In this document: piece by piece, positions 6,586 to 53,235 of the stretch | Position numbering within the stretch: the first letter of the stretch is position 1 | How the letters are laid out: each line of letters opens with the position of its first letter | Source: a bacterium | GTDB lineage: Bacteria > Patescibacteriota > Minisyncoccia > Phycocordibacterales > UBA9973 | Reading direction: 5' to 3' | Length of the DNA: 64,000 nucleotides | Assembly: GCA_037130335.1 (NCBI GenBank) | Contig: JBAXTD010000001.1 | Coordinates: 103,419 to 167,418 of the forward strand | The notes under the pieces: generated by a model | Databases searched by the model: none | Told to the model about the DNA's origin: nothing | Seen by the model: only the letters and a program-made list of their open reading frames with translations | Position numbers and translations under genes: made by a program

Positions 6586-7983
6586 ATGAAAAATATATTC
6601 TCAAAAATTATCTTCAGTGCTATGGTTCTCGTCACATCGTTTGTTTTTTCGGTGCATGTACACGCATACGTTACACCAACACTTTCTGTGTATGGTACAA
6701 GTGATGGAGATTCTGTGCAGGTCAATGCGTATGCCGATCCAAACGTAAGTATCACATTGTATTATCTCAAATCAGGTGCAGGTCAGCAGATTATTTCTCT
6801 CGGTAATACAAACTCAAGTGGTTTTCTTTCTACTACGGTAAGTAGTTCGCAATATGGTGTGATGTCAAATAGTCCAGTTCATATCACAGCAAACGGTATA
6901 AACGGAATATCATCATCGGTTGTAAATTGGCCGATTGTTACAACAAACATCACTAATGGAAATCTTTTGAGCCAGACAAGTGTGACAGTTTCTGTGGGGC
7001 AATCAGCAACAATAAATACAATCAACAATGTTGGTTCATTGTCTGTTTCAAGTAACTCAAATTCAAATGTCGCAAGTGTATATACAAATGGTAGTACAGT
7101 GACTGTCACTGGTAGTATGGTTGGTTCAACTACAATCAATATTTGTAATGCGTATTATAATCTCGTACCAAATTGTCAGAATTTATACGTTACTGTGCAA
7201 AATAGTAACAGTGGAAATCAAATAACATTTAGTCAAACAAATCCAACAATTTCTGTCGGACAAAATGTAAATATTTTTTTGTACGGAGGTTCTTCAAATT
7301 ATTACAGTATTTCTTCTAATTCAAATATAAATATTGTACAAGCAAGTATTTCTGGAAATAGTTTGAATGTGTACGGATTGTCATACGGTTCTTCTGTTAT
7401 AAATGTGTGTTCTTCAAATGGATATAGTTGTGGTCAAATTACAATAATGGTTTCTGGAAATAATCAGCCTGTATACAACACGAGCACAACTTTTTTGAAT
7501 GTAACACAATCAAAAATAAATATACTTACTGGTCAAAATACAACACTCTCTGTTTCTGGAGGTTCAGGTAGTGGATACAATATGGCATATATTTCTGGCT
7601 CCGGAATTATTTCTGGAGGCATAGCAGGAAATATCGTTACCGTCAGAGGAATTAGAAATGGATATGCCGTTATGGTTATTTGTGACTCGCTTAGTAATTG
7701 TGTTCCTGTTTCTGTTGTTGTCGGAAATACAATAAACCCATTAGGTAATCAATATCGATTTACTCAATATCTTTCGTTTGGTTCAACAGGAGCAGAAGTT
7801 GTTGCCTTACAACAAAGACTTACACAAGAGGGTGTATATAGTGGCCCAATCATTGGTGTTTTTGGTCCAATGACACAAGCGTCTGTGCAGCGATATCAAA
7901 GTGCGCATGGAATTCCAGTAACGGGTGTACTCGATAGTCTCACTCAAAACATGTTGAATGCTCAATTAAACATCGTATATTAA
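6586..7983 (+). CDS. Secreted repeat protein with a C-terminal peptidoglycan-binding domain (PG_binding_1).
   Basis: Signal peptide, Ser/Thr/Asn-rich repeated beta modules. C-terminus is GSTGAEVVALQQRLTQEGVY...SVQRYQSAHGIPVTGVLD. Confidence 0.65.
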   Translation: MKNIFSKIIFSAMVLVTSFVFSVHVHAYVTPTLSVYGTSDGDSVQVNAYADPNVSITLYYLKSGAGQQIISLGNTNSSGFLSTTVSSSQYGVMSNSPVHITANGINGISSSVVNWPIVTTNITNGNLLSQTSVTVSVGQSATINTINNVGSLSVSSNSNSNVASVYTNGSTVTVTGSMVGSTTINICNAYYNLVPNCQNLYVTVQNSNSGNQITFSQTNPTISVGQNVNIFLYGGSSNYYSISSNSNINIVQASISGNSLNVYGLSYGSSVINVCSSNGYSCGQITIMVSGNNQPVYNTSTTFLNVTQSKINILTGQNTTLSVSGGSGSGYNMAYISGSGIISGGIAGNIVTVRGIRNGYAVMVICDSLSNCVPVSVVVGNTINPLGNQYRFTQYLSFGSTGAEVVALQQRLTQEGVYSGPIIGVFGPMTQASVQRYQSAHGIPVTGVLDSLTQNMLNAQLNIVY

Positions 7984-8013
7984 TTTTTTATTTCTCTCTG
8001 ATATACTGTGTGT

Positions 8014-8394: not shown

Positions 8395-9183
8395 ATGCAA
8401 AAAAAAAGAGATTCTAAAAAACAAAATATTCAAAAGACGCCACAGAATTCATGGGGTGGTGTAGCAGATTGGTACGATGAATATCTAGAGACAAACAAAG
8501 ATAGCTATCAAGAAAAAGTTATCGCGCCAAACTTGCTTCGAATTTTGGACATAAAAAAAGGAATGAGAATTGCCGATGTTGCATGTGGGCAAGGATTCTT
8601 TGCTCGCAAATTCAAAACCGAGGGTGCCCATGTGATTGGTTCTGATATTTCTTTCGAGCTTGTTGCTTCTGCCAAAAAACATTCAAATGATATTGAGTAT
8701 GTCGTTTCGCCTGCACACAAACTTCCGTTTCTAAAAGATGAATCAATTGATGTGGTGACAATCGTGCTCGCAATTCAAAATATCAAAGAAATGGATTTAG
8801 TTTTTAAAGAAGTATATCGTGTGCTTGCAAAAGGTGGACGATTAATTTTAGTCCTCAATCATCCAGCATTTCGAATTCCGAAACGTTCAAGTTGGGAGTT
8901 TGATGAAAAAAATAACAAACAATATCGTCGAATAGATGGATATTTAACCGAAAATAAAAATGTGATCGTCATGCATCCTGGACAAACGGGAAGTGAAGAA
9001 ACGATTTCGTATCATCGCAGTCTACAGGATTTTTTCAAAACATTTTATAAAACAAATTTTGCTGTGACGCGACTTGAAGAATGGATTTCTCACAAAAAAA
9101 GTGAACGTGGTCTGCGACAAATCGCCGAGGATACAGCACGCAAAGAAATTCCAATGTTTATGATGATAGAGGCAAAAAAATAA
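8395..9183 (+). CDS. Class I SAM-dependent methyltransferase.
   Basis: Motif I is DVACGQGFFARKF. A LAKGGRLIL motif matches the Methyltransf_11-like fold. Confidence 0.65.
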   Translation: MQKKRDSKKQNIQKTPQNSWGGVADWYDEYLETNKDSYQEKVIAPNLLRILDIKKGMRIADVACGQGFFARKFKTEGAHVIGSDISFELVASAKKHSNDIEYVVSPAHKLPFLKDESIDVVTIVLAIQNIKEMDLVFKEVYRVLAKGGRLILVLNHPAFRIPKRSSWEFDEKNNKQYRRIDGYLTENKNVIVMHPGQTGSEETISYHRSLQDFFKTFYKTNFAVTRLEEWISHKKSERGLRQIAEDTARKEIPMFMMIEAKK

Positions 9184-39823: not shown

Positions 39824-42337
39824 ATGGCTATATTACAGAATCTTTTTGGAGATAGTAAAATGAAGTTTGCAAACAGTGTAAAAGCGGTTGTGGCAGAAGT
39901 TGCATCATATGAAGACGAGCTCAAAACCCTTGAGGATACTGTATTTCCCGAAAAAACAGCAAATTTAAAACTACGATATAAAAACGGAGAAACGCTAGAC
40001 CAATTATTACCCGAAGCATTTGCGCTTGTGCGTGAAGCATCACGTCGTGCTATTGGTCAACGTCATTACGATGTACAAATTATTGGAGGTATTGCACTTC
40101 ATCGAGGCAACATTGCAGAGATGCGCACCGGTGAAGGAAAGACATTGGTAGCAACGCTTCCAGTGTATCTCAATGCGCTTGCTGGACGTGGCGTGCACGT
40201 CGTGACTGTGAATGATTATCTTTCACGTCGTGATGCGGTATGGATGAGTCAGGTGTATCATTTCCTCGGACTTTCTGTGGGTGTAATTAATTCACAAAAT
40301 ATTTCCTATGTATATGATCCTACACACACCGAAAAGCAAACTGAACAAGAAGGAGTTTCTGTATACAAAGTTGTATATGATTTTTTGCGACCATCATCGA
40401 GACGTGATGCATACAACGCAGATATTACGTATGGTACAAATAATGAATATGGTTTTGATTATTTGCGCGACAATTTAGCAACACATGCAGAAAATTTAGT
40501 TCAACGTGATCACTTTTTTGCTGTTGTAGATGAAATCGATTCAATTTTGATTGATGAAGCACGTACACCACTTATTGTTTCTTCTGATTCAGAAGAGTCA
40601 GGAAGTTTTTATAAAACATTTTCTGATATTGCTTCGCAAATGATTGCAGAAGAAGATTTTACTGTAGATGAAAAACGCAAAGCAATTTCGCTTACTGATG
40701 CAGGAATTTCAAAAGCAGAAGCAAAACTTGATATCAGTAATATTTACACCGAAAAAGGAATCAAATATGTTCATCATCTCGAAACCGCAGTGCGTGCAAA
40801 GGCATTGTTTATTCGCGATCGAGATTATGTTGTCAAAGATGGTGAGGTAATCATCGTCGACCCATTTACTGGACGTATGCAGCCGGGTCGTCGTTGGAAT
40901 GAAGGCTTGCATCAAGCAATCGAAGCCAAAGAAAGTGTAAAGATTCAAAAAGAAACTCGCACGAGTGCATCGATTACATTTCAAAATTATTTTAAATTCT
41001 ACGAGAAGCTTTGTGGAATGACAGGAACTGCACAAACAAGTGATGAAGAATTCCGTAAAGTATATGGCTTAACTGTTGCAGTAATTCCAACTCATCGCGA
41101 AATCAAACGTGTTGATCACAATGATTTAATTTTTCAAACAGAAAAGGGTAAATGGCAGGCGATTGCGCGCGAAGTCAAAGCTCGTCACGAAAAAGGTCAG
41201 CCAGTACTTATCGGTACGATTTCAATTGAACGCAATGAATTACTCTCTGCGTATTTGCGTGATGCAGGTGTGCCACATACGCTCCTTAATGCCAAGAACC
41301 ACGAAAAGGAAGGTGAGTTGATTGCTCAAGCAGGTAAGCGTGGAGCAGTAACTGTGGCGACAAACATGGCTGGACGTGGAATTGATATTATTTTAGGTGG
41401 TGTGCCAGCAACCGATGAATCAAAAGAAGAAATCCGTGCGCTTGGTGGATTGTATGTGCTGGGAACAGAACGTCACGAGGCACGTCGTATCGACAATCAG
41501 CTTCGCGGACGCGCAGGACGTCAGGGTGATCCAGGCGAGACACAATTTTTTGTTTCGCTCGAAGACGATCTCATGCGTGTGTTTGGATCTGACCGTATCA
41601 AAAACATGATGGGACGTTTTGGAATTCCAGAAGACCAACCAATCGAAAACAGCATGATTACAAGTGCACTTGAAACTGCTCAGAAAAAAATCGAAGGATT
41701 TCATTTCGATGCTCGTAAATACACACTCGAATACGACAACGTGCTTTCACATCAGCGTGGAATTATTTATTCTCGTCGTCGTACAATGCTTCTTTCCAAA
41801 AAGGAGGACATGCAGACATATCTCGATCAATTCATTGGCGTAGATTCACACGTCGCCACTCTCGTTTCTCAAAAACGAGCGGCATTTGGTGATGATGCGT
41901 TCTTTGAAACATTTCGTCGAATTGTGTTGTTTGTCACTGATACACTGTGGATTGAACATCTCGAGACAATGGAATATTTGCGTTCATCGGTAAATTTGCG
42001 TGCATATGGTGGACGCGAACCGCTTGTCGAGTATCAACGTGAAGGTTTGCGATTATTCAAAGATTTGGAAGCAAGTTTCCGTGAACAAGTAATTGATTTG
42101 GTTGAAAAAATGTCTGAGCAACCCGTGATGCAAAACACACCAATCGAAATTCCCACACCACAAACATTCACTGCAACTCACATGGAACCAGAGGAACTAA
42201 CCGGCAAAGTGGAAAAGAATTCTCCACTCGCACAAAATAATTCTCAATCAAAATCAGAATCAAAAGTAGGTAGAAACGACCCATGTCCATGCGGTAGCGG
42301 CAAAAAATACAAGAAGTGTCATATGAATGGGAACTAG
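39824..42337 (+). CDS. secA: Preprotein translocase ATPase SecA.
   Basis: N-terminus MAILQNLFGD...EMRTGEGKTLVATLP (Walker A), DEAD-like VDEIDSILIDEARTPLI, C-terminal zinc finger CPCGSGKKYKKCH. The last five codons lie inside the attL repeat. Confidence 0.95.
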   Translation: MAILQNLFGDSKMKFANSVKAVVAEVASYEDELKTLEDTVFPEKTANLKLRYKNGETLDQLLPEAFALVREASRRAIGQRHYDVQIIGGIALHRGNIAEMRTGEGKTLVATLPVYLNALAGRGVHVVTVNDYLSRRDAVWMSQVYHFLGLSVGVINSQNISYVYDPTHTEKQTEQEGVSVYKVVYDFLRPSSRRDAYNADITYGTNNEYGFDYLRDNLATHAENLVQRDHFFAVVDEIDSILIDEARTPLIVSSDSEESGSFYKTFSDIASQMIAEEDFTVDEKRKAISLTDAGISKAEAKLDISNIYTEKGIKYVHHLETAVRAKALFIRDRDYVVKDGEVIIVDPFTGRMQPGRRWNEGLHQAIEAKESVKIQKETRTSASITFQNYFKFYEKLCGMTGTAQTSDEEFRKVYGLTVAVIPTHREIKRVDHNDLIFQTEKGKWQAIAREVKARHEKGQPVLIGTISIERNELLSAYLRDAGVPHTLLNAKNHEKEGELIAQAGKRGAVTVATNMAGRGIDIILGGVPATDESKEEIRALGGLYVLGTERHEARRIDNQLRGRAGRQGDPGETQFFVSLEDDLMRVFGSDRIKNMMGRFGIPEDQPIENSMITSALETAQKKIEGFHFDARKYTLEYDNVLSHQRGIIYSRRRTMLLSKKEDMQTYLDQFIGVDSHVATLVSQKRAAFGDDAFFETFRRIVLFVTDTLWIEHLETMEYLRSSVNLRAYGGREPLVEYQREGLRLFKDLEASFREQVIDLVEKMSEQPVMQNTPIEIPTPQTFTATHMEPEELTGKVEKNSPLAQNNSQSKSESKVGRNDPCPCGSGKKYKKCHMNGN

Positions 42338-43914
42338 AAAATAAAGTCGATTTCTACCTTGTTGTCTCCGGCTCGAATCTCCTTGATAATACTGCGTAAA
42401 ATCATCTTTTTCTCATCCAGTTCCATCTTGTCCCAGCAGGCATCAAAATCCTTCAAAGAGGCCACTAATTTGCGTGTTACAGCCACTTTCTGTGCGGTAG
42501 TGGTTGAGAGTAGAGATAAGCGTTCCACCTCCACACGGCTTTTTTGGATTTCCTGCCTAATCCTTGAAATATGCGCATCCAGTTGCTCCAAGGTTTCGAC
42601 TCCTTTTTCATAAGCTTCTTGATGTCGTTGCTCTCTGGCTGGACCTGATTCAATATCTCGGTTTAATCGAGCAATCGTTTTTTCTCTGTCATTTTCTTCC
42701 TGGTTGCCAGCCGTATAAGTTATATTTTCTTGGACCTTGGGGTGCGAATACAGATTTTTTATATGATCCAAAACTGCGCCTTCCAACTTGTCGGCACTCA
42801 TCACTCTTTGAGAGCAAATGCCTTTGTATTTGTATCCCGTGCAGATATATTCAAAAGTCGTTGTATCTTTCCATTTTGGATTTTTGTCAGATCTCTTGTG
42901 GCGACGTTTTTGATAGCCAACGCCGCTCTTGCAGCGGATGCATTTTGCAATTCCGGTGAGAACCCCTAGGGACCTCCCAGCTCCGCCTTTTGCGTGCTTG
43001 GTCCTCCCAGCTCTAATTTCTTTGACGAGGTTAAAAATAGTTTCGTCTACGATGGGGGAGTGTTCGCCATTTCCCACATACCCAACCTTGCCACGTCTCT
43101 GCCATTCCTTATTTTTCTTGTAGTCGGCATGTCTCCAGCCCCACCACACTTTGCCTGTGTATGTCGGATTGGCCAAAATATATCTGATGGTTTGGATACT
43201 CCAATTTATTCCATTGGGAGCGCTCCATCCCTTTTTATTCATTTCGATCGCTATTTTTCTGTCGCCATTGCCCCGAGCATATTCATTGAAGATAAAGCGG
43301 ATTTTCTGCGCTTCATCCTCGTCAACGATGACCGTCCTTTTTATTTTATTACCCTCCAGTGTTCTTACGACTTTGTATCCGTAGGGCACGCGGTTTGGTA
43401 TTTTCCCTTCTTTCGCCTTTATCATTTTTCCGCCCTTCATTCGACGATTGATGGCCGTTCGTTCGAGATCGGCTTTCATGTCTGAGATTGTCTCCATGAT
43501 CGTCGCCGAATCATTGTCGTCTGGGTCGTACTCGCTGACCGACTTTGGCTCGACAGGGGTGTTGATCGAGTAGGTTTGAATCCCGAGCCCTTTTAGTTCT
43601 TGCCGGATGATGGCGGCCGCATCTTTGTTTCTGGCAAATCTGTCATAATCCTTTACTATGATGAGGTCAAATTTATGTTCTCGCGCATCCCGCATCATGG
43701 ACTGCAATCCATGTCGCTCCTCCGTCAAATGACCGCTCACTCCTTCGTCTGTGTATTCCTGAAAAAATATCCATCCCTTTTCAAGTATCACCTTGTGGCA
43801 ATCTCTAATTTGCTGGGGGATTGAAGTTTTTTTCTGAGCTTGCTCTTGAGTACTCACTCTTCCATACGGAGCGACTCTCAAGCTCGTATTCACTGCACCT
43901 GCATTTCTATCCAT
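42334..43914 (-). CDS. Large serine recombinase.
   Basis: N-terminal resolvase domain with the catalytic Ser in YGRVSTQEQ, plus a recombinase domain, Cys-rich zinc ribbon (CIRCKSG...C) and C-terminal coiled coil. Its stop overlaps the secA stop by 2 nt. Confidence 0.8.
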   Translation of the reverse strand: MDRNAGAVNTSLRVAPYGRVSTQEQAQKKTSIPQQIRDCHKVILEKGWIFFQEYTDEGVSGHLTEERHGLQSMMRDAREHKFDLIIVKDYDRFARNKDAAAIIRQELKGLGIQTYSINTPVEPKSVSEYDPDDNDSATIMETISDMKADLERTAINRRMKGGKMIKAKEGKIPNRVPYGYKVVRTLEGNKIKRTVIVDEDEAQKIRFIFNEYARGNGDRKIAIEMNKKGWSAPNGINWSIQTIRYILANPTYTGKVWWGWRHADYKKNKEWQRRGKVGYVGNGEHSPIVDETIFNLVKEIRAGRTKHAKGGAGRSLGVLTGIAKCIRCKSGVGYQKRRHKRSDKNPKWKDTTTFEYICTGYKYKGICSQRVMSADKLEGAVLDHIKNLYSHPKVQENITYTAGNQEENDREKTIARLNRDIESGPAREQRHQEAYEKGVETLEQLDAHISRIRQEIQKSRVEVERLSLLSTTTAQKVAVTRKLVASLKDFDACWDKMELDEKKMILRSIIKEIRAGDNKVEIDFIF

Positions 43915-44092: not shown

Positions 44093-44296
44093 TTAAGCCT
44101 CTTTTTGGAGCTCTCTTTGGACGATTTTGTTGATAAGACTAGGCATCAATAGAGACAATTTTTCAGCAAGAGAGTCAACGTCCGTGCCAGCAAAAAATAC
44201 ATCCACAGATGGTCCGCTCTCATCATTGGTCGTATTCTTTTTGGCTGGTACGATTGAGGTCATGTAAGTGTTACTTGTCCTATTTATTTCTTGCAA
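44093..44296 (-). CDS. Hypothetical small protein (67 aa).
   Basis: ORF overlapping the integrase 3' end by 17 nt. No domain. Confidence 0.25.
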   Translation of the reverse strand: MQEINRTSNTYMTSIVPAKKNTTNDESGPSVDVFFAGTDVDSLAEKLSLLMPSLINKIVQRELQKEA

Positions 44297-45392
44297 GAAT
44301 GTCTCGAAAAACCCGAAGTTCTTCTTCGGTCAGGGAACCGTCCTTGTGTTCTCCTTGTGAATTCTTCAGGCTTTTGACGATTCTGATGGCCTCGTTCGCG
44401 GTCATGTTGCCGTACCCATACGAACCGAATGTCGTGGCGACATCTTCGTGTCCCAAGTTGAGGCTGACTGCCTTCTTTTCCTCCTCGGTCAGTCGCTTCT
44501 TGCTCACGATTGCCACCGCCAAATTCCTGAACGAGTGTGGATGATAGTAAGGCATACCGGCTGAGAGGTATCGTTTCTGGAGAATCTTCCGCGCCGATCC
44601 GGAACTGCTCCAAAAATCTGTACCGATCGTTCCTCTGCTGTAAGCGCTCTCGCCAGTTTCAAGATCATTCTGTGTTGTAGGGAAAATCGGATCGTCCGGT
44701 CCGAAGCTCTTCGACTCCAGATATTCGTACCACTCCACGAAGTACCGCTCCGGGTCGTCCCAGCCGAGAGGGAAAAACGTACACAGGATACGTTTCGAGC
44801 TTTTGGTTTTGACGCCGTCCGCGGGGTTCTGGTCGATAACTTTTTCCTGTTTATCAAAACTCTTCATCTTGAGCGTAATGATTGCCGAAATGCGGGCACC
44901 TACCGTAAAGGCAAAACAGATGAGCGCTCGATCGCGCATGTCTATCTCATTTTTGATTTCAATGCCCTCTATGAGCTTCCGGATTTCCTCGAATGTGGGA
45001 ATCTTTTTGGTTGTGCTCTGTCGGGCGATGCGAGTATCCTTTTTGGAAAGACGTAAGTATTCAATATCGCCTTTTGCCATCTTGCTTTTGTACCCTGGCT
45101 GGTCGGAGAGCCATTCGAAAAACTTCTTTACACGGCGGAGATAGTTGTATCGGGTGACAATAGCGATTTTTCCCGTCGGAGTTTTTGACGATTTTGTCTC
45201 AAGCCACTCGACGAACGCCGTCGCCTTCATTTTGTTGAAATTGGCGAAGTCCTCGTTCCCTGTAAAAAGTTGCCACTTGGCAATCGCTCCAGCAAAGACG
45301 AGGATAGAGCCCTTGGTGAACCCTCGGGCACCCAGGAGTTGCTCTAAAAAGTCCCGCTTCGCCTTTTCATTTTCGTATGGTATGTCTGTCAT
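44280..45392 (-). CDS. Tyrosine recombinase / phage-type integrase.
   Basis: SAM-like N-domain. Catalytic R...HPHSFRN...LGHEDVATTFGSYGY (R, HxxR, Y). Confidence 0.8.
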   Translation of the reverse strand: MTDIPYENEKAKRDFLEQLLGARGFTKGSILVFAGAIAKWQLFTGNEDFANFNKMKATAFVEWLETKSSKTPTGKIAIVTRYNYLRRVKKFFEWLSDQPGYKSKMAKGDIEYLRLSKKDTRIARQSTTKKIPTFEEIRKLIEGIEIKNEIDMRDRALICFAFTVGARISAIITLKMKSFDKQEKVIDQNPADGVKTKSSKRILCTFFPLGWDDPERYFVEWYEYLESKSFGPDDPIFPTTQNDLETGESAYSRGTIGTDFWSSSGSARKILQKRYLSAGMPYYHPHSFRNLAVAIVSKKRLTEEEKKAVSLNLGHEDVATTFGSYGYGNMTANEAIRIVKSLKNSQGEHKDGSLTEEELRVFRDILARNK

Positions 45393-48346: not shown

Positions 48347-48456
48347 CTTTTTCTATGAAAACTAAGTGTTTTTTGTTGTTCTCAAAACTTGCTGTTATTT
48401 TAAGATATGCTAAACTGTTTCCAAAGAGTGCTATAAATAGCATCTTTTGGAAATAT

Positions 48457-49083
48457 ATGCAATATCAAGAATTACGTCAAAAACTCAAGGATTTCAGTGT
48501 TTTTTCGCTTTCAGACATTCGAAAGATCGAATCTGATTTTCATCGTCGTCGCTTGAATGAATGGCAAGAAAAGGGTTATATCAAGAAGCTCCGTCGCGGA
48601 TACTATATTTTCTCCGATCTCTTAATCTCCGAAGAGACGCTTTTTCTCATTGCCAATCGTCTTTATAATCCCTCGTACGTATCACTTGAGATGGCGATGT
48701 CGCGCTACGGATTGATTCCTGAGTCGGTCTATGGCGTGACTTCAGTTGGGAGTAAAAAGACCGCCGATTTTAAGACACCGATAGCAACTTTTCTATATCG
48801 CAGTATCAAGCCGTCGCTTCTTTTTGGCTACAAGCTGGAAGGAACAAAGAAGCAGAAATATAAGATCGCCGAGATTGAAAAGGCGGTGTTAGATTATCTC
48901 TATTTCAACAAACATTTATCCGCTGACGATGATTTTGAGGGGATACGTTTCAATGGCGAGGAGTTTCTAAAAAAGGCTGATATGTTGAAGTTCGAGCGAT
49001 ACCTCAGAGTATTCAAGAATAAAAATTTAACAGAGCGGGCTGGTGCGCTTATCAATTATATAAAGAATAACAACCATGCTTAG
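48457..49083 (+). CDS. AbiEi-family antitoxin / transcriptional regulator (type IV TA / Abi).
   Basis: N-terminal wHTH MQYQELRQKLKDFSVFSLSDIRKIE...GYIKKLRRGYYIFSD typical of the AbiEi N-domain. Start placed at the internal ATG 48457. Confidence 0.65.
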   Translation: MQYQELRQKLKDFSVFSLSDIRKIESDFHRRRLNEWQEKGYIKKLRRGYYIFSDLLISEETLFLIANRLYNPSYVSLEMAMSRYGLIPESVYGVTSVGSKKTADFKTPIATFLYRSIKPSLLFGYKLEGTKKQKYKIAEIEKAVLDYLYFNKHLSADDDFEGIRFNGEEFLKKADMLKFERYLRVFKNKNLTERAGALINYIKNNNHA

Positions 49084-49852
49084 CCTTCAAGAAATCGAAG
49101 TTCAGTATCCAGAAAACCTACGCCCCTTCAAGCGCAACATTTTGCGTGAGTATTTGCAATACAAGATTTTGGAGATCATCTTCAAATCGTCTCACGCGGC
49201 TAAGCTTTCCTTTCTCGGGGGTACGGCGCTCCGAATCGTCCACAACAACAGTCGCTTCTCGGAGGATCTTGATTTTGATAACTTCGGGCTGGAAGAGAGT
49301 GAGTTCAATGCTATCGCCGAAGAGGTAAAAGCAGGGCTCGATGCTCTTGGATTGAAGACGGAAATCAATACTGTGATGAAGGGAGCATATCGTTGCAACG
49401 TCAGACTTCCTGAAGTGCTTTTTGTGAATGAACTATCTCCCTTGCAAGAGGAAAAGATATTGATCCAGATCGACACGGTCCCACACCAGTATCCATATAC
49501 GCCTGACAAAAAAATCCTCAACAAGTTTGACGTGTTTTCGGAGATCTTTGTCACGCCCGTGTCGCTCTTGCTTTCACAAAAAATCTGGGCTGCCATCAAT
49601 CGCAAGCGAGCAAAGGGTCGTGATTTCTACGACATCGTCTTTCTCTTTTCTTTCACTAAACCTGAGTACCCGTATTTGATGCAGAAGATCGGTGCGGGCG
49701 ATGGGGAAGCGGTTCGACAAAAGCTACTCGACTCTATCCAAGACCTAGATTTTAAGATGCTTGCTGACGATGTTCGTCCGTTCCTATTCAATCCGGCTGA
49801 TGCACAGAAGGTTGAGCTTTTCAGGGAATTTGTAGTTCAAGTAGAGTTTTAG
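49076..49852 (+). CDS. AbiEii/AbiGii-family nucleotidyltransferase toxin (DUF1814).
   Basis: LREYLQYKILEIIFKS...LSFLGGTALRIVHNNSRFSEDLDFDNFG is the hallmark N-terminus. Overlaps AbiEi by 8 nt. Confidence 0.7.
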   Translation: MLSLQEIEVQYPENLRPFKRNILREYLQYKILEIIFKSSHAAKLSFLGGTALRIVHNNSRFSEDLDFDNFGLEESEFNAIAEEVKAGLDALGLKTEINTVMKGAYRCNVRLPEVLFVNELSPLQEEKILIQIDTVPHQYPYTPDKKILNKFDVFSEIFVTPVSLLLSQKIWAAINRKRAKGRDFYDIVFLFSFTKPEYPYLMQKIGAGDGEAVRQKLLDSIQDLDFKMLADDVRPFLFNPADAQKVELFREFVVQVEF

Positions 49853-49867
49853 TATAATTGCAAATAT

Positions 49868-50641
49868 ATGAATTTCGAATTACCAAAATTACAACGCATG
49901 CCAGATGAGCCATCAGGCAGTGCTGATAATGAGACAATAAAAATAGGAAAACAGTATAATGAGTTTGCTGAAAATTTCGCTGATAAACATAAAAATTTAG
50001 ATGAAATTACGCAAGCTTCTTTTCAAAAAGCACTATTAGGAATAGTGTTTAAAGACAAAAAAGTTATTGATTTAGGGTGTGGAGATGGTTACGATTTATT
50101 GAAACTGCAAGAAAAAGGAGCGATTGTTTACGGTCTTGACGCTTCTGAAGAAATGATAAAACTTGCAAAGGCAAAGAACAGCCAGGGTAATTTTGAGAAT
50201 GGTTTTTTTGAAAATATTCCTTATGCCGATGCTTCTTTCGATGTTGTTATAAGTAAATATGCAATGCAAACAAGCAAGGATGTTCCTAAAATACTAGAGG
50301 AAGTTGGGCGAATTTTAAAACCTGGCGGAAAACTTGTGTATGTAGTAACTCATCCAGTCAGACAATTTATGGAGAAAAAGAAGGCGAACAAGGATTATTT
50401 TGAACAAGAGGTAGTAGATTCTGTTTTGTTTGACGGTGCAATTACTGTTCACGAGCCATCGCACACCCTCGCTGAATATCTTAATCCAGAATTTTTAAAA
50501 AATTTCGACTTAACTTTTTACGAAGAAAAATTTGATCCAAGTAATGCTGAAATGGTAGAAGGCTCAAGTTACCCAGCTTTTCTTTGTGTTGGAGCAAAAA
50601 GAAAAAATGCGAGTGAATCAACAATTTCTCAAACAGCTTAA
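49868..50641 (+). CDS. Class I SAM-dependent methyltransferase.
   Basis: VIDLGCGDGYD motif I, DASEEMI, LKPGGKLV. Confidence 0.6.
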   Translation: MNFELPKLQRMPDEPSGSADNETIKIGKQYNEFAENFADKHKNLDEITQASFQKALLGIVFKDKKVIDLGCGDGYDLLKLQEKGAIVYGLDASEEMIKLAKAKNSQGNFENGFFENIPYADASFDVVISKYAMQTSKDVPKILEEVGRILKPGGKLVYVVTHPVRQFMEKKKANKDYFEQEVVDSVLFDGAITVHEPSHTLAEYLNPEFLKNFDLTFYEEKFDPSNAEMVEGSSYPAFLCVGAKRKNASESTISQTA

Positions 50642-50756
50642 TACCAAGTTAGAACTATTGTTATTCAATAATTAACTCAACAAAACCCTCCCTAGACGGC
50701 ATTAAAAAAGACCATGATTGAAATCATGGTCTTAAGTATCTTCGTCTAGGTGCACC

Positions 50757-51548
50757 TTATGCTCTTACTTTTTCAAGCAGGTTCTCCGTTGTAAATGGCA
50801 GTTGTAGATAATGAGGATTATCATTTGCCATCCACCCCGCAGCGATCACTCGCTGTTCGGGTTTTTTCGCCACTAACAATTTCTCAAAAACATCTTTTAC
50901 ATCTTTGCTTTTTACTTGCCCGTTAATCTCGCCTATAAGCAAGGTGATATCAGGATTTTTTTCAGCAAATGTAAGGGGGGCGTTTTCAGTACTCTCATTA
51001 GGGACAAAAATTACATTGAAGTCTGCCTTTAAGCTCTCTTCCAGTCTTTTTTTGTAGTCGTCATTGACTCCAATTAACATGAAAGATTTCTTAGTAGAAG
51101 CTTTCGGCTGCTCGCCAAGTTCGGCGTTCTCGATGGACATAAACCCTTCCGCTGCTGCCAGCCAGTTTTTGTTTCCCTGGTTGAAGCCGCTTACGAATGA
51201 GTTTTTGCCAAGGAGGCTGTCCATCGCCCAAGCTATGGGGCTCGCGTGATGACTGATGTCAGTCAATATGGCTACATGGGGAACGCCCGTGTTTTTTGCC
51301 AATATTGAAAGTATCAGACCGTACGGAGTGTCCTTACCGATTTCGGCTGTAGGGCCGACGCCTTCCTTCTCTCCCGGCATCATCAGATCCGTCAGCAGGA
51401 TGTCGAACTTCCTGGTTTTTAACAAGCCCACCGCCATGGAGTACATGGGGCAGCAAGTCAGGATGACATTTTTGCCGTTGAATTGTTTTTCTGCCGCATC
51501 AAGGTTTGCGCGCGTGTCGTCTACTACTAAGATTGCTATCTTTTTCAT
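50757..51548 (-). CDS. Orphan response-regulator receiver (REC) domain protein with an uncharacterised C-terminal half.
   Basis: ILVVDD (acid pocket) and DILLTDLMMPG (phospho-Asp) motifs. The C-terminal ~140 aa is unknown, possibly a second degenerate flavodoxin-like fold. Confidence 0.55.
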   Translation of the reverse strand: MKKIAILVVDDTRANLDAAEKQFNGKNVILTCCPMYSMAVGLLKTRKFDILLTDLMMPGEKEGVGPTAEIGKDTPYGLILSILAKNTGVPHVAILTDISHHASPIAWAMDSLLGKNSFVSGFNQGNKNWLAAAEGFMSIENAELGEQPKASTKKSFMLIGVNDDYKKRLEESLKADFNVIFVPNESTENAPLTFAEKNPDITLLIGEINGQVKSKDVKDVFEKLLVAKKPEQRVIAAGWMANDNPHYLQLPFTTENLLEKVRA

Positions 51549-51793
51549 ATTTGTTGATTTTAAGTTTGAAATTATTGGTTTATTTCAACCTCTCTGTCGG
51601 GAGGGGCTCAAATAAACCAATAAAGCTTAAAATCAAAGGTTATTAAGGATTTCTTAAATCTTGATTATATCATAGCATGTTTATATATAAAAGTCAAGGC
51701 TAATTCAGCCTCGGCTTGGCCAATTGTTGACTTTCTATAAATATATGTTATCCTATAAAAAAATCACTCTTTCAACTTTTAAATAGCACTTTT

Positions 51794-52111
51794 ATGAAGA
51801 AAATAATGGTTTTCGGTATTTTCGTTTGCTGCATCGCGGCCAGTTGTTCTAAGCGCCCCCAAGTTGTTAAAGTCCTGCCTGGCAAGCTCGTTCGAGTGAT
51901 CGGCAACGATGTATTCTGCCAGTTAAAGCTCGAAGTCGATACTTCACTGAAAGGAGGATTCGGCATTGTTGCCACCTCCTACAACGTATTCGATCACGAC
52001 GCCGAGAAAGGTGACAGTATGCGGGTGGCTCTGTATTCTGACGGGTCCGTCGAAGCTCATACGTACCGCATGCGTACGGACATCATGATCAGGGAGGATC
52101 GCGGGGACTGA
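51794..52111 (+). CDS. Small secreted protein or lipoprotein.
   Basis: Signal peptide MKKIMVFGIFVCCIAASCS. Confidence 0.4.
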   Translation: MKKIMVFGIFVCCIAASCSKRPQVVKVLPGKLVRVIGNDVFCQLKLEVDTSLKGGFGIVATSYNVFDHDAEKGDSMRVALYSDGSVEAHTYRMRTDIMIREDRGD

Positions 52112-52255
52112 TGCCAAAAGGAAAACGGGTGCGCCTATTCGTAAAAGTGCCCACAAATTAAGCCCTTGGAAAAACCAAGGCACTGTCGCAAGGTAATTGC
52201 TTTGCCTGATGAGTCCATGAGGACGAAACAGCTGTTCTTTACATAAAAAATCTAT

Positions 52256-53053
52256 ATGCTCAATTTCAAGGAGTTCCAAGCCAAAGCTCGGGAACTATTC
52301 GGCAAACTGAACTGCGATCCGGCCGGTGACGACCCCATCACATTTCTGCACTCCCTTCCCTGGGAGATACCGAACGGTCCTGCTTTTTCCGAAGAGGAAG
52401 TGGCACGAATGAATATCGACTTCGACGTGCGCGGCTGTTTCGGCCGGGCACTCAAAGCCGCAGTGTTGGTTGAGAAGTATTTTCCGAACGAAACTTTTTA
52501 CAACGGCGAGGTGCTCGAAGACTTGCTTCGCTCCATGCTAATGAAAAAAGTGACACCGGAAAAATGGCATGACGATACCTACGTCGCTGAGATTCTCCAG
52601 TATGAGAATCCGCACGTGGCGATCGTCTGGAACGATTCGCAGTTTGATCCAATCTTCAGTCTTCTGACTGACAGGCCGGAAACGCTCAAGCATCCGTCAA
52701 TATTGAAACATAGCCAATGGGAAGGATTGTACTGCTACTATCTCGTAAGCAGTGGCATGCTCTTGTTCAGACAAAAGCAAAATCCAAACCTATACTTGCA
52801 AGCTCTCAAGCAAGCCGAGGCGATCTGCCCGCACATGCTTCTCGTCAAAGAAAATCTGGTGAGCGCACTCTGCGCCCTGAACAGATTCGACGAGTCGGTC
52901 GCGATTGCGAAATCGCTGGTCGGAAAGCGCAAGGACGCGAAAATGCTATGGTTCCTATTGCAGATGACCGGAGACCCGGCGTACAAAGATCGGCTCGTAC
53001 GCGAGTATGACATCCAAATGCTTCACTTCTTAAACAAAGCGTTCATACCATGA
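52256..53053 (+). CDS. Hypothetical protein (265 aa, high GC).
   Basis: Helical, TPR-like C-terminus. Translationally coupled (ATGA) to the next ORF. Confidence 0.45.
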   Translation: MLNFKEFQAKARELFGKLNCDPAGDDPITFLHSLPWEIPNGPAFSEEEVARMNIDFDVRGCFGRALKAAVLVEKYFPNETFYNGEVLEDLLRSMLMKKVTPEKWHDDTYVAEILQYENPHVAIVWNDSQFDPIFSLLTDRPETLKHPSILKHSQWEGLYCYYLVSSGMLLFRQKQNPNLYLQALKQAEAICPHMLLVKENLVSALCALNRFDESVAIAKSLVGKRKDAKMLWFLLQMTGDPAYKDRLVREYDIQMLHFLNKAFIP

Positions 53054-53235
53054 CACCATCGGACTTGTCACCCGCTATGCGTAAGGCCTACGAGGCCCTT
53101 CCGGAAAACGAAAGAGAAGCGTTCCTTGAAGAGTATGCACACTGGTACGGCGAAACCGTGCGAGGAAACATATCTCGCATAATGGCACGCAATTTTTCGC
53201 ACAATGTTGGGAAACATGTGACGGAAGCGCAGTAA
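53050..53235 (+). CDS. Hypothetical small protein (61 aa).
   Basis: Its start overlaps the previous stop. Confidence 0.35.
   Translation: MTPSDLSPAMRKAYEALPENEREAFLEEYAHWYGETVRGNISRIMARNFSHNVGKHVTEAQ

Follow-up and report, generated by a model that had tools for sequence, protein, structure and literature searches.

The 64-kb window analysed here (the whole stretch of 64,000 nucleotides, positions 103,419 to 167,418 of contig JBAXTD010000001.1 from a bacterium of the Patescibacteriota) carries, on its minus strand, a gene for a 263-amino-acid tandem receiver-like protein (Table 1). An initial annotation, made from the letters of the DNA, had described it as a canonical receiver (REC) domain fused to an uncharacterised output domain of ~140 amino acids, horizontally acquired, situated on a mobile island and with no histidine kinase nearby. 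The protein is a REC–pseudoREC tandem, and it belongs to the known class of output-less tandem-REC proteins; it has no output domain because its C-terminal half is a pseudo-receiver. Public data contain a 100% identical protein, encoded on a contig of 188,660 bp and named 'MAG: response regulator [bacterium]' (MAG, metagenome-assembled genome), and about 30 full-length homologues (42–64% identity, 257–275 amino acids, several of them named Pacebacteria) could be aligned with it (alignment A1). The AlphaFold2 (AF2) model of the 263 residues consists of two (beta-alpha)5 domains, with a predicted local distance difference test score (pLDDT) of 87 and a predicted template modelling score (pTM) of 0.85. 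These two receiver-fold domains and a 16-residue linker account for all 263 amino acids and leave no room for a further domain.

Two receiver-fold domains in one protein

The N-terminal domain has the (beta-alpha)5 flavodoxin-like fold. The open reading frame (ORF) is real, and the alignment of the domain to CheY, which equates D10/D11 with D12/D13 and D54 (in DLMMPG) with D57, upholds the receiver-type N-terminus with acidic pocket and acceptor aspartate that the initial annotation had proposed. The epithet 'canonical' fits the first half of the domain, which contains the acidic pair and D54, but not the second half, which is not alignable to receivers by sequence. Pfam Response_reg scores the gene at 31.7 bits, marginally above the cut-off of 30.2, and matches residues 6–76 to profile positions 1–70 of 111, while NCBIfam and Protein Data Bank (PDB) sequence searches with the 263-residue protein gave matches confined to the first 55–90 residues of receivers. 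Profile–profile placing of the Thr and Lys residues of the domain failed, hhalign mis-threading alpha3 onto beta4, and their positions were taken from the predicted structure instead. T96 does not vary within the tandem family and occupies the last position but one of predicted beta4 (E91–97); of the Thr/Lys pair whose loss would have made the domain a pseudo-receiver, the Thr thus appears to be in place at the strand end, whereas the invariant Lys, K127, appears to lie off the canonical position. Between beta3 and alpha3 the domain also has a conserved insert of 12 residues (E60...G71...P75-Y76-G77).

The C-terminal domain, whose AF2 secondary structure spans E154–160 through H254–262, is a second and degenerate (beta-alpha)5 receiver fold rather than the uncharacterised output domain it had been taken for. 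Its profile (A2) matches the receiver 3n53 end to end (E 0.0025) and is co-linear with CheY residues 4–121 (E 0.0012, but with an hhalign probability of only 19%). The acidic-pair position is occupied by G160/V161, the Lys position by L250 (YLQLPF vs YVVKPF) and the acceptor-Asp position by I205, G206 or E207, the alignments lying two residues apart and none of them giving an Asp. Pseudo-receivers are defined as receiver folds without at least one of the DD, D, T and K residues (PMC12632262), and by that definition the C-terminal domain is a pseudo-receiver of the aspartate-less kind.

The best whole-chain structural matches in Foldseek (E 1e-6 to 1e-4) are the PleD stem of Caulobacter crescentus and the tandem REC structures 3luf/3mf4, with 3luf and PleD at the top. 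The PleD stem has the same domain order (D1 receiver, D2 pseudo-receiver), and phosphorylation of D1 alters the D1/D2 contacts and drives dimerisation (PMC12632262). The likeness is one of fold only, at ~14% identity: the window protein lacks a GGDEF or other output domain, and its N-terminal domain has a remodelled alpha4-beta5-alpha5 region, the HH...K-x-W residues and the 12-residue insert after beta3. By its published description, DrdR of Xanthomonas campestris is also comparable, being an orphan, output-less protein with one functional and one degenerate receiver, although the pseudo-receiver is N-terminal in DrdR and C-terminal in the window protein. DrdR acts by protein–protein interaction on PilB/PilT (PMC13507683) and is reported to act likewise on FleQ (PMC13535131). 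The C-terminal domain further resembles the pseudo-receivers of FrzS, NblR and the plant PRR type in having a receiver fold without catalytic residues (PMC12632262), but it is fused to another, probably active receiver and not to an output domain. Tandem-REC response regulators are described as widespread (PMC13535131). The tandem architecture is therefore already known, and what appears to be new is the clade to which the N-terminal domain belongs.

Table 1. Features of the window around the tandem receiver-like gene, in window coordinates
Feature	Position	Strand	Remarks
secA	39824-42337		left flank of island
Serine recombinase	42334-43914	minus	ends 4 nt inside the secA 3' end, overlapping its stop codon
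Tyrosine integrase	44280-45392	minus	
DUF5659 gene, then 582-aa unknown			between tyrosine integrase and AbiE pair
AbiEi/AbiEii pair	48355-49852	plus	complete abortive-infection/toxin-antitoxin pair; PADLOC E about 1e-63 and about 1e-93
Class I S-adenosylmethionine (SAM) methyltransferase	49868-50641		follows AbiE pair, convergent with receiver gene; host-like GC 0.346
Hairpin + T-run, terminator-like on the minus strand	50691..50750	minus	between convergent methyltransferase and receiver genes
Tandem receiver-like gene, no output domain	50757..51548	minus	263 aa + stop, ATG start
C-terminal pseudo-receiver (aa 153-263)	50760..51092	minus	AF2 secondary structure, profile matches, Foldseek
Interdomain linker, variable (aa 137-152)	51093..51140	minus	poorly conserved columns; pLDDT 66 for residues 141-150
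N-terminal receiver domain, HH clade (aa 1-136)	51141..51548	minus	D10, D11, D54, T96-D97, H100-H101, P104, D110, K127-N-W129
Strong hairpin, predicted 5' leader	51572..51623	minus	23-nt arms, outer stem ATTGGTT/AACCAAT
Promoter-like site TTGACT-17-TATGAT, extended TG	51669..51697	minus	~120 nt upstream of start codon; consensus scan 10/12, pattern match only
105-aa putative lipoprotein gene			between receiver gene and 265/61 pair
Hammerhead type III candidate (Rfam RF00008)	52180-52234	plus	between 105-aa and 265-aa cistrons, co-oriented
265-aa transglutaminase-like + TPR protein and overlapping 61-aa protein	52256..53235	plus	divergent neighbours of receiver gene
208-aa unknown, then rve-type insertion sequence (IS)			between 265/61 pair and trypsin-like gene
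Trypsin-like lipoprotein, 248 aa	55291..56037	plus	lipobox LSAC; GLSGSP serine motif
NUDIX cluster	from 56557		right flank

The HH receiver clade and its genomic neighbours

When the A1 profile was run exhaustively with HMMER against 1.84 billion representative proteins, it returned 1,457 matches (436 with E<=1e-10, and 19 with E<=1e-30), far below the expected yield of a generic receiver profile; outside the tandem family, the matches cover only N-domain positions ~4–114. The 145 top representatives that were classified include 94 single-domain proteins of 150–200 amino acids, 35 with an N-terminal and 13 with a C-terminal extension. An alignment of 41 diverse members (A4), with a mean column identity of 24%, has D11, A19, D54, G77, H101 and K127 invariant and D10, D49, P58, P75, A84, P104, D110 and W129 conserved in at least 90% of sequences. 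The signature of what we call the HH clade is: DD...TDLMMP...P-x-G-L...(T/S)D-x-x-H-H-x-x-P...A-x-D...[hypervariable]...K-(D/N)-W. Clade relatives mostly score below the Response_reg threshold. The clade profile compared with canonical receivers nevertheless gives an hhalign probability of 99.4% (E 1.6e-21), with a reliable alignment from beta1 to beta3 only, and on this profile evidence we consider the N-domain clade unambiguously homologous to canonical receivers.

In ordinary receivers, the alpha4-beta5-alpha5 face is the output and dimerisation surface. The clade-specific residues (HH, P, D and K-x-W) all map to these elements in the AF2 model, and the output face of the clade may have been re-tooled for a dedicated partner. 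In some members (P0097 and P0105, A4 columns ~215–285), the hypervariable stretch from alpha4 to the K-x-W motif contains CxxC...CxxC zinc-ribbon-like inserts of the DnaJ-like CxxCxGxG type.

The distribution of the clade was surveyed in 185,579 species-representative genomes, using profile A3 for locus finding as A4 was too diverse for this purpose. Matches extending past beta3 were mostly in MAGs labelled Paceibacterota, Nomurabacteria, Peribacteria, Kaiserbacteria, Buchananbacteria, Vogelbacteria, Saccharibacteria or 'Patescibacteria group', and several were in unclassified contigs. Three MAGs with clade members carry archaeal labels, namely Woesearchaeota (L020, a tandem member; L numbers denote fetched loci), an unclassified archaeon (L023) and Methanosarcinales (L026). 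The many matches in Desulfobulbales and similar groups are to the generic first half only. Searches for a phage link gave zero matches in IMG/VR and GenBank phages and generic REC matches only in PHROGs. Apart from the three archaeon-labelled MAGs, the family and the clade come almost entirely from MAGs labelled as candidate phyla radiation (CPR), and nothing points to import from outside CPR, as 'horizontally acquired' would have implied. A single MAG labelled 'uncultured Gammaproteobacteria bacterium' (L006/L019, CAYMZF010000015.1) also carries a tandem-family gene; the other close relatives are all CPR-labelled, and this label may reflect mis-binning or mislabelling. Judging from Pfam, NCBIfam, PADLOC and paper searches, this clade of ~440 protein clusters appears to be undescribed, and the same goes for its signature and distribution, for the lack of kinases around its genes and for their pairing with TrmB-like genes.

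The neighbourhoods were compared for 52 distinct clade genes, of which 17 are tandem and 35 are not, with local profiles built from the fetched loci. Single-sequence phmmer searches (with CheY, two receivers and the L012 kinase) were too insensitive, missing even the gene itself, and were replaced by Pfam and by a kinase-core profile iterated from the single kinase found (L012). This profile matched in 84 of 111 ordinary receiver loci, and in 64 of the 70 that are at least 8 kb long, compared with 1 of 17 tandem-family loci and none of 25 non-tandem clade loci. That one tandem locus has, besides the kinase, two further receivers 3–5 kb off. In the window, Pfam scans found no HisKA/HATPase_c protein among the annotated ORFs or those of at least 150 amino acids, and the six-frame translation of all 64 kb contained no kinase-core match. 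The reported absence of a nearby histidine kinase, cognate or other, is thereby confirmed for the window gene, and orphan status is the rule for the whole HH clade, not special to the window copy. Two-component genes are few in Patescibacteria, at ~5 per genome (PMC7137472), which agrees with the scarcity in reduced genomes invoked in the initial annotation. As a separate observation, genes for PEP-utilizers proteins, with a phosphohistidine swivel domain, occur next to two tandem members (L003, 9487-12776; L005, 3127-4560 and 8983-10488), directly downstream in the case of L005; a phosphohistidine protein as alternative phosphodonor is conceivable, but these 2 loci are the only ones to show the association.

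A different type of neighbour recurs outside the tandem family. Upstream sequence of at least 1 kb was at hand for 25 non-tandem members; in 15 of these a TrmB-family gene lies divergently upstream on the opposite strand, within 1 kb, and a divergent TrmB-like gene accompanies none of the 17 tandem members. The TrmB-like partners are winged-helix regulators of ~250–270 amino acids, standing head-to-head with single-domain and N-extended HH members (L013, L015, L024, L025, L028, L030, L031, L033 and L034, and further L037, L112, L113, L116, L118, L119, L125, L126 and L130). PF01978 is annotated for the TrmB-like gene in L013 and L015, and L025 and L118 each contain two TrmB/HH-receiver pairs in tandem. 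This pairing is paralleled by the thaumarchaeal REC-only/HTH_20 pairs, archaeal REC-only genes divergent to helix-turn-helix (HTH) genes having been noted without functional proof (PMC5847659). Single-domain HH relatives are stand-alone receivers like CheY, DivK, CpdR and Spo0F, but the clade differs from these in its own signature, its essentially kinase-free neighbourhoods and its occurrence mostly in CPR-labelled MAGs; the window protein differs further by its fused pseudo-receiver and has no TrmB-like neighbour. Other recurrent clade neighbours, recognised by sequence motif, are the CCA-adding enzyme, RNase Y, HU and ClpP, and they resemble housekeeping synteny. The C-terminal domain of the window protein was also considered as a homologue of the 'X-REC' N-terminal extension or of the TrmB-like C-terminal domain, and neither comparison gave a signal.

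A broader proposal would make the HH clade a kinase-free signalling module of ultra-small-cell lineages, working as a 'split' one-component regulator. Its His/Asp patch would sense a metal, a metabolite or an acyl-phosphate and control the separate TrmB-family factor; the tandem form on mobile elements would be derived, with its pseudo-receiver replacing the host factor or acting as a decoy. Taken as a whole, we consider this proposal unlikely.

Proposed phosphorylation and its alternatives

With moderate confidence, we interpret the window protein as a phosphorylation-dependent protein-interaction switch, i.e. an output-less two-domain response regulator. D54 would receive its phosphoryl group either from a kinase whose gene lies elsewhere or from a small phosphodonor like acetyl phosphate. 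The modification would then reshape the alpha4-beta5-alpha5 face, and so the way in which it meets the pseudo-receiver fused to it, on the pattern of the PleD REC–PsR stem (PMC12632262), and this remodelling would switch dimerisation or else binding to a partner encoded by another gene. The mode of action would be protein–protein interaction alone, as for CheY, DivK and DrdR (PMC13507683), and in the tandem subfamily the part played by the TrmB-like partner of the single-domain relatives may have passed to the pseudo-receiver. Phosphoryl chemistry is favoured because the DD, D and T/S residues survive in the clade at 24% mean identity, and judged by these residues the N-terminal domain is probably phosphorylatable.

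Several observations weigh against such a switch. The invariant K127 lies 5 residues past predicted beta5 (E117–122), just before alpha5, and the canonical Lys is at the strand end. The AF2 pLDDT is just 64–76 across residues 101–130, and no sequence alignment extends to the K127 region. A kinase-independent mechanism would account just as well for the near-total lack of kinases in the neighbourhood. The protein could accordingly be conceived as a phosphorylation-independent atypical regulator or adaptor, in which the N-terminal domain is functionally a pseudo-receiver, its acidic pocket serves Mg2+ binding or structure, and the signal is a ligand or metal at the His-His/Asp patch or simply the abundance of the protein. 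We regard this as possible, if somewhat unlikely, and keep it under consideration because of the systematic lack of kinases (1 of 42 clade loci vs 64 of 70 ordinary receiver loci), the seemingly displaced Lys and the extra invariant His. It also draws on the non-canonical second half of the domain, left uncovered by the Pfam match, and on the location of the invariant H101, the nearly invariant P104 and D110 and the conserved H100, all beside the active-site rim. Characterised atypical response regulators are, moreover, greatly enriched for orphans (PMC12632262). However, the residues of phosphoryl chemistry stay invariant over very deep divergence, whereas pseudo-receivers normally lose at least one of the DD, D and T/S residues (PMC12632262), and the tandem locus with a kinase and two receivers close by likewise counts against this reading.

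The conserved His, Asp and Lys residues beyond the receiver quintet, together with the missing kinase partner, could also be accommodated by an enzymatic N-terminal domain. Receivers and HAD phosphatases share their active-site geometry, and the domain might be a HAD- or CheY-like aspartyl-phosphate phosphatase or phosphotransferase with D54 as nucleophile, H100/H101 as general acid or metal ligands and the pseudo-receiver serving regulation or oligomerisation. We consider this very unlikely, as the protein has no cap domain and no obvious substrate pocket, and the strong link of its relatives to a transcription-factor gene suggests signalling.

Recognisable signalling genes are very scarce in CPR bacteria, whose regulation is little understood. 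If the clade is a real functional unit, it would provide a concrete and experimentally testable regulatory circuit for these bacteria, in which a receiver whose output face is remodelled stands head-to-head with a TrmB-like regulator and has no kinase partner. The HH clade would then offer a further natural example of switching in orphan and atypical receivers. The outcome for the window gene itself is more modest: its puzzling 'output domain' is explained as a pseudo-receiver.

The mobile island and predicted RNA elements

The guanine-plus-cytosine content (GC) is 0.429 for 42.3–56.1 kb of the window and 0.36–0.37 outside, reaching 0.457 in the receiver gene and 0.50–0.51 in the 105-, 265- and 61-residue genes. 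Together with the recombinase, the integrase, the AbiEi/AbiEii pair and the rve-type IS, the raised GC supports a mosaic mobile island around the window copy, in agreement with the setting initially proposed. The island probably begins on its left at the junction of secA and the serine recombinase gene; neither direct repeats of the att type nor tRNA genes turned up convincingly when looked for, and the borders were not located. PADLOC recognises only AbiEi/AbiEii, upstream of the receiver gene, and it gave no significant match for the receiver gene and its three unclassified neighbours, the trypsin-like protein being marginal at E ~1e-3. Other family members occupy ordinary chromosomal contexts, after rpoB/rpoC/pth (L006) or beside a DNA pol III delta'-like gene (L008, L017).

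The closest orthologues, in L003 and L004 (63% identity), share with the window the 265-residue, 61-residue and trypsin-like genes, the last encoding proteins 68–70% identical to the window copy, in contexts that are otherwise unrelated and integrase- or ParB-methylase-bearing. The four genes could therefore be conceived as a cargo module of a mobile element, for example in conflict or defence, in which the receiver regulates or is processed by the transglutaminase-like/TPR protein, its 61-residue partner and the trypsin-like lipoprotein. This conception rests on the synteny in three otherwise different contexts, on the GC-richness of all four genes relative to the host, on AbiE, recombinases and IS on the same island and on a hammerhead candidate that two of these loci have within the module. 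We nevertheless find it quite improbable. The 265/61 pair occurs without a receiver gene in both additional contexts examined, and the 14 other distinct tandem-family loci, several of which are short contigs, are without the pair. The lack of significant PADLOC matches and of any member in viral collections argues in the same direction. Because the pair and the receiver are found apart in this way, we attribute the synteny of the window, L003 and L004 to common descent from a single mobile module and not to an obligate functional unit. Co-occurrence with the neighbouring genes at 51794-53235, which the initial annotation had singled out for a check, thus holds as synteny of the pair in L003 and L004 but not in the other tandem-family loci. 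The 265-residue neighbour was also considered as a diverged TrmB-like regulator, in view of its like size and orientation; the hhalign probability was 0.3%, and the protein is transglutaminase-like with TPR instead.

The receiver gene is preceded by a strong predicted leader hairpin, which sits between the promoter-like site and the start codon. Similar hairpins were found upstream of orthologues in L004 (~7930-7985), L008/L017 (5939-5985) and L101. The outer stem is conserved in three diverged orthologue loci, with a G-U in the outer stem of L004, and the inner stems differ in sequence yet still pair. The hairpin pattern occurs once in the window, against 0.03 occurrences expected, and among L001–L100 only upstream of orthologues; it is absent upstream of more distant family members. 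A comparison with Rfam gave no significant match, the only two hits, to miRNA families, falling well short of the respective gathering scores (E 0.08 and 0.96).

The hammerhead candidate of the window covers the full model (1–54) with 36.6 bits, below the gathering score of 48.5 (E 1e-6 to 8e-6), and has a complete core, CUGAUGAG...CGAAAC, with a GUC cleavage triplet. A second candidate, at L004:5239-5293 on the minus strand (39.3 bits), is likewise intercistronic and shares the strand of the homologous module genes; L003, L097 and L099 contained none. L097, a prophage-like locus with a 264-residue/64-residue pair, carries a LOOT RNA (Rfam RF03000) at 8802-8921 on the plus strand, at 82.7 bits and above the gathering score.

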